Virus record (IMG/VR): IMGVR_UViG_2731957955_000011
Strand: one strand, 5' to 3'
Source: a virus
Lineage: Duplodnaviria; Heunggongvirae; Uroviricota; Caudoviricetes
DNA length: 33,875 nucleotides
In this document: piece by piece, positions 31,896 through 33,875 of the stretch
How the letters are laid out: every line of letters begins with the position of its first letter
Numbering within the stretch: the first letter of the stretch is position 1
The notes under the pieces: model-generated
Database searches by the model: none
Told to the model about the DNA's origin: nothing
What the model saw: the letters and a program-made list of their open reading frames with translations, nothing else
Made by a program: the position numbers and the translations under genes

Positions 31896-31990
31896 GGAAG
31901 ATCGTCGTCTCCGGTGAGGCGGCTGGACTTCAAATCCAGTTGGGGCCGCCAGCGGTCCCGGGCAGGTTCGACTCCTGTGATCTTCCGCCA
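31896..31990 (+). tRNA. selC: tRNA-Sec (selenocysteine, anticodon UCA)
   Basis: 95-nt sequence GGAAGATCGTCGTCTCCGGTGAGGCGGCTGGACTTCAAATCCAGTTGGGGCCGCCAGCGGTCCCGGGCAGGTTCGACTCCTGTGATCTTCCGCCA, matching E. coli selC as I recall it; anticodon TCA at 31930..31932; encoded CCA end. Confidence 0.95.
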
Positions 31991-32103
31991 GTTTACCTCT
32001 TCTGAACTCTCCCAATGTCAATAAATCTCTTCTAATCCCTTGTATATCAGTATTTATTTGTATCCTGAGGTCAACCTACTTCACCCCATATCAAGTTTCT
32101 TTT

Positions 32104-32254
32104 GGGGGTACTTTAGGGGGTGTTATTTCCTATTGAAATACAAGCACCCCCATAATAGGAAAAATATGATACATAACAACGGCTTTTAACAATATCTTTG
32201 TTATACAAGGGGTGTATTGGGGGTATCAGGTTAGTTACTGGCAGAAATCCCCCT
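32104..32254. repeat. cluster of G5/C5-containing heptamer repeats plus a 9-bp inverted repeat in the selC-int spacer (candidate integrase or regulator binding sites, attL arm)
   Basis: GGGGGTA at 32104..32110 and 32219..32225; GGGGGTG at 32116..32122; GGGGTGT at 32209..32215; CACCCCC at 32145..32151; TCCCCCT at 32248..32254; tttcctatt (32126..32134) / aataggaaa (32154..32162) perfect inverted repeat. All read directly; function inferred. Confidence 0.4.
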
Positions 32255-32289
32255 CAGGAAGATGAATTCATCAAAAGCCGGAGGATGTC

Positions 32290-33474
32290 ATGGCATTAAC
32301 CGATATCAAAGTGAAAACCGCAAAACCCAAAGACAAACCCTATAAGCTTGCTGATGGCGGCGGTATGTATCTACTGATTAACACTAATGGTTCTAAATAC
32401 TGGCGCATGAAGTACCGCTTTGCTGGTAAAGAAAAGATGCTTTCTATTGGCGTATACCCCGATGTAACGTTAGCCGATGCTCGCGAGAAACGCAGTGAAG
32501 CCAGGAAACTCCTCGCTGCTGGAGGCGATCCAGGGGAGGCAAAAAAGGAAGAAAAAATCGCGCAGCAAATGAGTCTGAAAAATACGTTCGAGGCTATTGC
32601 TCGCGAATGGCACCAGTCAAAAGCTGATCGGTGGTCATTACGCTATCGTGATGAAATCATTGATACCTTTGAAAAAGACATTTTTCCCTACATTGGCAAG
32701 CGCCCTATTGCCGAAATCAAACCAATGGAGTTACTGGAAGCACTACGTAAAATGGAAAAACGTGGAGCTCTGGAGAAAATGCGCAAGGTCCGCCAGCGCT
32801 GTGGTGAGGTGTTCCGCTATGCAATTGTTACTGGCCGGGCAGACTATAACCCAGCCCCCGATCTTGCCAGTGCTTTAGCTACACCGAAAAAAGTACATTT
32901 TCCCTTTCTTACTGCTAATGAACTTCCCCACTTCCTCAACGATCTGGCGGGTTATACCGGAAGTATAATCACTAAGACAGCTACTCAGATCATTATGTTA
33001 ACCGGCGTACGAACACAAGAACTGCGTTTTGCACGCTGGGAAGATATCGATTTTGAGACAAAATTGTGGGAGATCCCGGCAGAAGTAATGAAGATGAAGC
33101 GACCTCATATTGTGCCGCTCTCTGAGCAGGTCATTATGCTATTTAAGCAGCTTGAACCAATCTCAAAACATCATCCCCTAGTCTTTATCGGTAGAAATGA
33201 TCCCCGCAAACCAATTAGTAAGGAAAGCATTAACCAAGTAATTGAATTACTTGGATATAAGGGAAGACTCACAGGGCACGGTTTCAGACACACCATGAGT
33301 ACAATTCTGCATGAACAAGGCTTTAATTCCGCCTGGATTGAAATGCAGTTAGCTCATGTGGATAAAAATTCCATCAGGGGTACCTATAATCATGCCCTGT
33401 ATCTCGATGGCCGCCGTGAAATGATGCAATGGTACGCTGATTACATTGATTCACTCTCCAGCCGGGAAAGTTAA
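32290..33474 (+). CDS. P4-family tyrosine site-specific integrase (tRNA-associated genomic-island integrase)
   Basis: 394-aa ORF MALTDIKVKTAKPKDKPYKLADGGGMYLLINTNGSKYWRMKYRFAGKEKMLSIGVYPDVTLADAREKR... with a P4-Int-like N-terminal arm-binding region and catalytic-core motifs (TGVRTQELRFARWEDID; HGFRHTMSTIL; RGTYNHA). Good ggagga Shine-Dalgarno. Sits 300 bp 3' of selC. Confidence 0.88.
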   Translation: MALTDIKVKTAKPKDKPYKLADGGGMYLLINTNGSKYWRMKYRFAGKEKMLSIGVYPDVTLADAREKRSEARKLLAAGGDPGEAKKEEKIAQQMSLKNTFEAIAREWHQSKADRWSLRYRDEIIDTFEKDIFPYIGKRPIAEIKPMELLEALRKMEKRGALEKMRKVRQRCGEVFRYAIVTGRADYNPAPDLASALATPKKVHFPFLTANELPHFLNDLAGYTGSIITKTATQIIMLTGVRTQELRFARWEDIDFETKLWEIPAEVMKMKRPHIVPLSEQVIMLFKQLEPISKHHPLVFIGRNDPRKPISKESINQVIELLGYKGRLTGHGFRHTMSTILHEQGFNSAWIEMQLAHVDKNSIRGTYNHALYLDGRREMMQWYADYIDSLSSRES

Positions 33475-33577: not shown

Positions 33578-33875
33578 GGTAATGACTCCAACTTATTGAT
33601 AGTGTTTTATGTTCAGATAATGCCCGATGACTTTGTCATGCAGCTCCACCGATTTTGAGAACGACAGCGACTTCCGTCCCAGTCGTGCCAGGTGCTGCCT
33701 CAGATTCAGGTTATGCCGCTCAATTCGCTGCGTATATCGCTTGCTGATTACGTGCAGCTTTCCCTTCAGGCGGGATTCATACAGCGGCCAGCCATCCGTC
33801 ATCCATATCACCACGTCAAAGGGTGACAGCAGGCTCATAAGACGCCCCAGCGTCGCCATAGTGCGTTCACCGAAT
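33578..33875 (-). mobile_element. IS1 insertion sequence, partial (terminal inverted repeat plus about 300 bp; remainder beyond window end)
   Basis: Starts with the IS1 terminal inverted repeat ggtaatgactccaacttattgatagtgttttatgttcagataatgcccgatgac... and continues as IS1 sequence as I recall it, with insB encoded on the minus strand. Confidence 0.9.
33593..33875 (-). CDS. insB: IS1 transposase InsB, C-terminal part (5' end beyond window)
   Basis: Minus-strand frame ...[93 protein letters not shown], open to the window edge. Confidence 0.88.

Follow-up and report, generated by a model that had tools for sequence, protein, structure and literature searches.

What reads the runs of five guanines that lie between selC and the integrase gene of this element? 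The stretch of DNA that we analyzed (the window; 33,875 nucleotides) is identical in sequence to Escherichia coli O104:H4, and the initial annotation drew attention to a region upstream of int in which G5- and C5-containing heptamers in both orientations are accompanied by a perfect 9-bp inverted repeat. The region was likened to arrays of arm-type integrase sites or of excisionase or regulator sites. Is the cluster more than an accident of composition? If it is, is it read as DNA or as RNA, and by which protein? Does the inverted repeat belong to it? The observations below, drawn from sequence comparison, make it very likely that the island's own P4-family integrase uses the G5T repeats as arm-type binding sites and that the spacer that holds them is the P' arm of attL.

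The setting is that of an integrated element. selC and int are co-oriented on the plus strand, the tRNA gene first, with a spacer of 299 bp between them, and the 24-bp 3' end of selC, TTCGACTCCTGTGATCTTCCGCCA, occurs again in the source genome ~49 kb downstream (L002:27125-27148), between the last island gene and setC. P4-type arrays likewise belong to elements that are inserted at a tRNA 3' end and have a core copy at either end, and the 299-bp spacer is the int-proximal (P') arm of attL of the selC island. The direction of int transcription, away from selC, requires that the int promoter be located within this arm. The int gene encodes a tyrosine recombinase whose N terminus is an arm-binding domain (Arm-DNA-bind_3/DUF4102; PF13356, residues 3 to 88, E=2.8e-30), followed by a central domain (PF22022, residues 100 to 194) and a catalytic domain (PF00589, residues 206 to 370). 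Outside the window, the island also has an AlpA-family open reading frame of 68 amino acids (L002:13053-13259; PF05930, E=4e-9); PF05930 is matched by P4 Vis too, which places the island protein in the AlpA/Vis family of directionality factors.

In the source genome, the island is ~49 kb long, ends before setC, and carries the Ag43 adhesin on a CP4-like backbone. The resistance cargo of the O104:H4 island comprises a class 1 integron, dfrA7, sul (sul2), bla-TEM-1, strAB, mer, and tet(A). An IS1 element (window 33593-33875, InsB frame on the minus strand) starts ~120 bp past the int stop codon, and beyond it in the source genome lie Tn3-family, class 1 integron, IS26, TEM-1, sul2/strAB, mer, and tet(A) modules. 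Since IS1 and the resistance modules come directly after int, the resistance region was assembled beside the integration module, with int left undisrupted.

How many repeats does the spacer hold? Six copies had been claimed for 32104-32254. Searched on both strands, this region contains four exact copies of GGGGGT[A/G] (32104-32110, plus, GGGGGTA; 32116-32122, plus, GGGGGTG; 32145-32151, minus, GGGGGTG; 32219-32225, plus, GGGGGTA) and five G5 or C5 runs, the fifth of which (32249-32253, minus) is GGGGGAT. The sequence that had been counted as a sixth copy, 32209-32215, reads GGGGTGT and has a run of only four. The array is where it was described; the count of six does not stand. The repeat unit also exceeds the heptamer, in that CTTTTGGGGGT, CTTTAGGGGGT, and GTATTGGGGGT align as one family, the first two of them 12 bp apart. 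These units and the features around them are collected in Table 1.

Table 1. Features of the selC-int region, with positions in the window
Feature	Position	Strand	Basis or remark
selC (tRNA-Sec), integration target, attB side of attL	31896..31990	+	ARAGORN; Rfam RF01852, 83.8 bits
attL core/overlap, 24-bp TTCGACTCCTGTGATCTTCCGCCA, the selC 3' end	31967..31990	+	Identical 24 bp at the far island end
Possible degenerate inverted copy TATGGGGTG, membership uncertain	32082..32090	-	Outside 32104-32254; only partly conserved
Putative arm-type site P'1, TTGGGGGTACTT, first tandem unit	32102..32113	+	Base 6 lies 119 bp after the core end; kept in all Int-encoding clade relatives
Putative arm-type site P'2, TAGGGGGTGTTA, second unit, 12 bp after P'1	32114..32125	+	Spacing as in P4 and ~40 other distinct loci
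Perfect 9-bp inverted repeat TTTCCTATT ... AATAGGAAA, flanking P'3	32126..32162		Arms 32126-32134 and 32154-32162, 19 nt between
Putative arm-type site P'3, inverted, ATGGGGGTGCTT on the minus strand	32142..32153	-	25 bp from P'2; conserved as GCACCCCCATAAT
Putative weaker site P'4a, AAGGGGTGTAT, G4 core, 11 bp before P'4b	32207..32217	+	AAGGGGTRCAT in most relatives
Putative arm-type site P'4b, TTGGGGGTATCA, extra int-proximal direct copy	32217..32228	+	GGGGGTATCAGG conserved
C5 run, GAGGGGGAT on the minus strand, probably no site	32247..32255	-	Variable or deleted in relatives
int, 394-amino-acid P4-family tyrosine integrase	32290..33474	+	Open reading frame; Pfam; PDB homologues of the arm domain
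Arm DNA-binding domain coding region, proposed reader of the G5T sites	32296..32553	+	Pfam PF13356; covariation with motif class
Met50 codon, the only arm-domain position separating GGGGGT (M/L) from GGGGGC (R/K) integrases	32437..32439	+	Alignment; low-confidence model

That the copies are clustered beyond chance in an AT-rich spacer, as had been proposed, is borne out. Counting both strands, the window contains six GGGGGT, four of which fall within 122 bp (P ~1e-6 for random placement). G5 runs are rarer in the window than expected (26 found versus 52 expected), and the G+C content of the spacer is 39%, versus 51% for the window. A G-quadruplex was considered and rejected by inspection, the G-runs of the plus strand lying 7 nt and then ~88 nt apart. 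P'4b is specific to the long-spacer selC clade and lies at +103 from P'2 in most long-spacer relatives where it is present; in strain WW2, it is the P'4a copy that is G5T, and the copy that follows is degenerate instead.

If the spacer is one arm of an attachment site, does the other end of the island carry the same motif? The initial annotation had recommended looking there, and a tandem pair is indeed present: TTTGGGGGTT and TATGGGGGTT lie within the island close to that end, with a start-to-start distance of 12 bp, and begin 96 and 84 bp ahead of the point where the 24-bp core repeat of attR ends. A strict search of the attR region for GGGGGTR gave zero matches. Read from the sequence, the far-arm copies are GGGGGTT, so the degenerate position of the heptamer as originally written was too narrow. 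Against a background of 11 GGGGGT in the 91 kb outside the two arms, two or more copies in the 100 bp at the far end have a probability of ~7e-5. Both arms therefore carry the motif: the int side has four to five copies, and the far side has one tandem pair. The attR arm was found in ~2,100 E. coli genomes. Islands with unrelated cargo next to this arm (DUF4942, DUF2441, or RhuM genes) still retain the pair, with sequence similarity setting in ~15 bp ahead of it. Several attR cores of other E. coli selC islands (L094-L099, ~330-345) bear deletions of 1 to 4 bp (tgtgatctccgcca, tgtgatctgcca, tgtgatcgcca), and the tandem arm pair next to them is intact; these islands have probably become fixed in place through decay of the core.

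Absence of the motif from homologous islands would have spoken against a binding function, and the motif is not absent: diverged selC islands, both in E. coli and in ~20 other enterobacterial genera, retain its copies. In diverged E. coli selC spacers (80 to 98% identical), the four G5T units are intact and the neighboring sequence varies, and in strain ET625, a 50-bp block upstream has been replaced and the G5T units stay. Since the E. coli spacer variants are 80 to 100% identical overall, conservation within this species is weak evidence by itself. For a wider comparison, eighty loci from other species were collected with the integrase protein as the query. Wherever a selC integrase has an N terminus of the M[AP]LTDIKVK type, the 400 bp ahead of its gene contain two to five GGGGGT, and the rest of the locus has almost none. 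Some 45 distinct loci keep the geometry of the array. They span six tRNA targets (tRNA-Sec, Gly, Arg, Phe, Thr, and Leu, the last being P4's leuX), and in them the first site lies 118 to 121 or 129 to 131 bp from the core end, the second 12 to 13 bp further on, and the inverted copy another 24 to 27 bp on. The 129- to 131-bp class consists of the tRNA-Arg and tRNA-Phe loci and one selC locus (L043). The two distance classes differ by about one helical turn, and the arm sites would therefore stay on the same face of the DNA.

What happens to the repeats when the integrase is lost? At the int-less LEE junctions of enteropathogenic E. coli E2348/69 (L007:1590-1730) and O157 strain 493/89 (L092:1700-1840), three of the four G5T cores are mutated; H59, an int-less LEE junction, was used as the second decay example. 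The mutated cores read GGGGAT or GAGGAT, CCTCCC or ACCCC, and GAGGAT, and an IS3 remnant stands in the place of int. This decay is consistent with relaxed selection after loss of the integrase, and the two int-less junctions count as one event because they probably share one ancestor. A different kind of change is seen at a second selC-type junction, in E. coli O157:H7 FRIK944 (L008:1600-1640), where a deletion fuses P'1 to P'4b to give GGGGGTGCATTGGGGGT: two G5T copies remain, 11 bp apart, and P'2, P'3, and ~100 bp are gone, as expected of recombination or slippage between direct repeats. A partial selC core and a P4-like primase gene precede int at this junction, so that two elements lie in tandem.

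Which part of the integrase goes with the motif? Three motif classes share one layout, namely, GGGGGT, GGGGGC(A) as in P4, and a TGTATAG-like class, and the class tracks the N-terminal domain rather than the catalytic part or the tRNA target. Of the selC integrases that match the window Int at 85 to 94% identity after residue 95, those whose N terminus is at least 71% identical to it have GGGGGT and those at 66 to 69% have GGGGGCA. One mosaic integrase makes the same point within a single protein: compared with the window Int, it is ~65% identical over residues 1 to 90 and ~94% identical over residues 97 to 390, the switch falling at about residue 96, and its selC locus has four GGGGGCA sites (L025:1-1420; the contig is labeled as an Ignatzschineria metagenome-assembled genome, a label that looks doubtful because the sequence is enterobacterial in type). 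The motif covaries with the Arm-DNA-binding domain, and we therefore favor Int over an excisionase as the reader of the sites. The TGTATAG/CTATACA class occurs in 3 to 11 copies upstream of related integrases (L050, L051, L053, L060, L071, L080-L088, and IMG/VR loci L104-L134); the arm domains of this class read GLSLL..GSKGWRFRYRF instead of GGMYLL..GSKYWRMKYRF, and the copies in L050 are laid out as two direct and two inverted, as in the G5 arrays.

Can the correspondence be narrowed further? Across 54 unique N-terminal sequences, just 1 of 92 alignment columns, residue 50, fully separates the T class from the C class, with Met or Leu accompanying GGGGGT (29 sequences) and Arg or Lys accompanying GGGGGC (25 sequences, P4 included), the sequences being related and not independent. 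Two deep clades would give many diagnostic columns, so a single one speaks against such a division; in a neighbor-joining tree (a short alignment without bootstrap), the Leu50 group nests among C-class sequences, and the T class is not monophyletic. The rule also holds 14 times out of 14 in an independent IMG/VR set, in which 13 distinct P4-like N termini have Leu50 with G4-5T and one has Lys50 with G5C. Solved structures of homologous arm domains (3JU0, 3JTZ, and 3RMP) are all without DNA. An AlphaFold2 model of Int residues 1 to 98, made without an alignment, has low confidence (pLDDT of 54), and we used its secondary structure alone; in this model, residue 50 belongs to strand 3 of a three-stranded sheet, with a helix after it.

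Based on these comparisons, we tentatively suggest, as a possibility that we hold with some reserve, that the identity of base 6 in the arm site is determined by residue 50 throughout the P4 integrase family, with Met or Leu specifying GGGGGT and Arg or Lys specifying GGGGGC. As to chemistry, a basic side chain could read the G of a C:G pair, and a hydrophobic one could touch the thymine methyl group. We found no description of this rule in the searchable literature, whose coverage of P4 is incomplete, and this correlation would be the sole potentially new point of the present analysis. If it is true, arm specificity would be a simple, swappable code, and islands that share one tRNA gene, like the two selC lineages, could keep their intasomes apart by a swap of the arm domain together with a one-base change in the sites. 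In any case, the correlation supplies a testable recognition rule for a very large family of integrases.

We posit the following model for the array. The N-terminal arm-binding domain would dock on the 12-bp units WWGGGGGTDYTW, and the C-terminal domains of the heterobivalent integrase would bind the 24-bp core formed by the selC 3' end and cleave it there. On the int side, the docking sites would be the tandem pair P'1/P'2, the inverted P'3, and the second, proximal pair P'4a/b; at the far end, they would be the tandem pair 96/84 bp before the core end. An intasome for excision (attL x attR) would form as Int bridges arm and core sites; once the island has circularized, such bridging would serve integration (attP x selC). 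Could the same occupancy also control the gene? Because the int promoter must lie in the arm, Int on the arm sites should repress int, and we think it rather probable that such negative autoregulation takes place.

The regulatory part of the model stays conditional because neither the promoter nor an IHF site was located. A consensus scan of the plus strand of the spacer returned no sigma-70 promoter, and manual inspection gave no convincing -35/-10 pair; the IHF consensus WATCAANNNNTTR, allowing at most one mismatch, had zero matches in the spacer (31991-32289). A core-to-arm distance of 119 bp would normally need a DNA bend. In the whole window, IHF near-matches (at most one mismatch) are commoner than in shuffled sequences (51 versus 30 +/- 5.7), with none in the selC-int spacer. 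Between the core and the first arm pair lie TCAA(Y/G) elements (GTCAAT at 32015-32020, GTCAAC at 32070-32075, and ATCAAG at 32090-32095), which are among the best-conserved parts of the spacer, ATCAAGT being invariant in nine E. coli variants. Clearer direct arrays are seen in relatives, with CGACGTCAAC repeated in L043 and several copies of TCAAC in L039 and L027. The TCAA elements may be sites for an AlpA/Vis-like directionality factor or for a host bending protein.

Could the repeats be something other than integrase sites? That they are a functionless effect of chance or composition in a horizontally acquired spacer is barely conceivable: although the motif is short and the six GGGGGTR in the window are not above the 4.6 expected, their clustering, the second cluster at the other island end, the geometry kept across genera and tRNA targets, and the covariation of motif with integrase all speak against it. 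An RNA-level explanation is very unlikely as well. It would have the inverted copies (GGGGGUG ... CACCCCC) and the 9-bp repeat form a hairpin in the int leader that governs termination or translation. P4 int is said to be under premature termination and posttranscriptional control (attributed to Piazzolla et al., 2006), which would suit such a hairpin, and the minimum-free-energy fold does pair 32103-32109 with 32146-32152. However, the folding energy is ordinary (z = -1.28; 21 of 200 shuffled sequences fold as well), the Rfam match is to tRNA-Sec only, and a hairpin leaves unexplained both the direct tandem pairs and the copies at the far island end. Nor does the 9-bp repeat help. It exists and is perfect, as had been reported, but among 21 distinct spacer variants it is present only here and in one near-identical Escherichia ruysiae locus; the best complementarity in the other 19 is at most 6 bp, with zero compensatory changes. 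These absences speak against a functional element, and the repeat is probably a fortuitous, strain-specific coincidence.

A more substantial question is whether the repeats are bound not by Int but by an excisionase of the AlpA/Vis family, acting as a directionality factor, or by another regulator of the island. The initial annotation allowed for this, the island encodes an AlpA-family protein of the same family as P4 Vis, and in KplE1, TorI binds repeated attL sites that overlap the int promoter (PMC2951348). We nonetheless consider it improbable. The motif class follows the arm domain of Int down to one residue, the mosaic integrase included; the corresponding P4 copies are annotated as attP arm repeats; the sites occur on both arms, in the tandem-plus-inverted layout typical of Int arm sites; and the TCAA(Y) elements are better candidates for sites of a directionality factor or host factor. 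The arm-type integrase-site reading, which had been among those proposed for this region, is thus upheld by the far-arm pair, the P4 geometry, the ~45 loci, and the covariation with the arm domain.

What follows for the island? The selC-int spacer would be the control region for mobility of this selC island, which in O104:H4 bears resistance genes and Ag43; in other strains, selC hosts LEE and further pathogenicity islands. Because both cores, both arms, and int are intact, the sequence suggests that the island is still competent for excision. The exact arm sites are concrete targets at which to test or block excision and transfer.

How does this arrangement compare with systems that have been studied directly? 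Our full-text literature searches found no paper that maps the arm sites of selC integrases. The closest phage relatives of the window Int are IntS/Sf6-type integrases (~49% identity). In attL of KplE1 (CPS-53), the arm-type P' sites of IntS and the TorI sites overlap the intS promoter (Panis et al., 2010; PMC2951348). As here, the tRNA gene and int of KplE1 are co-oriented, in that order, the int promoter is within attL, the Int arm sites are there too, and Int represses itself; unlike here, the KplE1 P' sites share TAAA, the target is argW, and the directionality-factor sites have been mapped by experiment (PMC2951348). Panis et al. (2010) predicted self-repression of int for selC-int pairs, and they reported that the PintL region (-273 to +70) of the selC-intL pair of O157:H7 EDL933, a locus of the same type as ours, is repressed ~4-fold by IntL; P4 Int likewise represses Pint by direct DNA binding (cited in PMC2951348). 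The O157:H7 FRIK944 integrase, which has a selC-type attL arm, is 95.4% identical to the window Int. With lambda Int and its arm-type sites P1, P2, and P'1 to P'3, the system shares a heterobivalent integrase and arm sites that flank the core on both sides in mixed orientations (summarized in PMC2951348), whereas the arm-domain family, the motif, and the spacing are unrelated, and no IHF consensus was found in the selC-int spacer.

The nearest parallel is phage P4. Its attP arm repeats were reportedly first described by Pierson and Kahn in 1987. In the orientation of int, the repeats of one arm read GTGGGGGCACAA and AAGGGGGCATAT; those of the int side read TTGGGGGCATAA and TTGGGGGCATCT, accompanied by TTGGGGGCACAT, an inverted copy overlapping the start of int. 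The P4 record (NC_001609) annotates the repeats as 12-bp "attP arm sequence repeats" (WTGGGGGCAY) and calls P4 Int an "integrase arm-type DNA-binding domain-containing protein." The inverted repeat (L091:3911-3926, minus strand) lies between two in-frame ATGs (ATGtgcccccaaATG); because the homologous start of the family is the second ATG, the annotated 440-amino-acid P4 Int starts four codons early relative to its relatives.

P4 and the island are both built of 12-bp G5-core units, paired in tandem on either arm and joined on the int side by an inverted copy, at distances that agree within 1 to 2 bp. Base 6 of the first int-side site comes 120 bp after the core end in P4 and 119 bp after it in the island; the tandem spacing is 12 bp in both; the inverted copy follows the second site by 24 and 25 bp, respectively; and on the far arm, the G5 starts precede the core end by 94/82 bp in P4 and by 96/84 bp in the island. 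Both elements transcribe int away from a core at a tRNA 3' end, and both have an Arm-DNA-bind_3 integrase and a gene of the AlpA/Vis family. Unlike P4, the island has selC rather than leuX as its target, its Int is 46% identical overall to that of P4, and it has ~135 bp extra between the inverted copy and the ATG, with the added direct pair P'4a/b. Base 6 is T in all island copies (GGGGGTD), so the repeats are a sequence variant and not the P4 motif itself (GGGGGCAY, with C at base 6), and Met50 here stands against Arg in P4 Int. Since the layout matches the P4 arm repeats almost base for base, the feature is real but of a well-known kind: the architecture is as expected for a P4-family integrase module, with a T-for-C arm motif, and it confirms current understanding of such modules without changing it.
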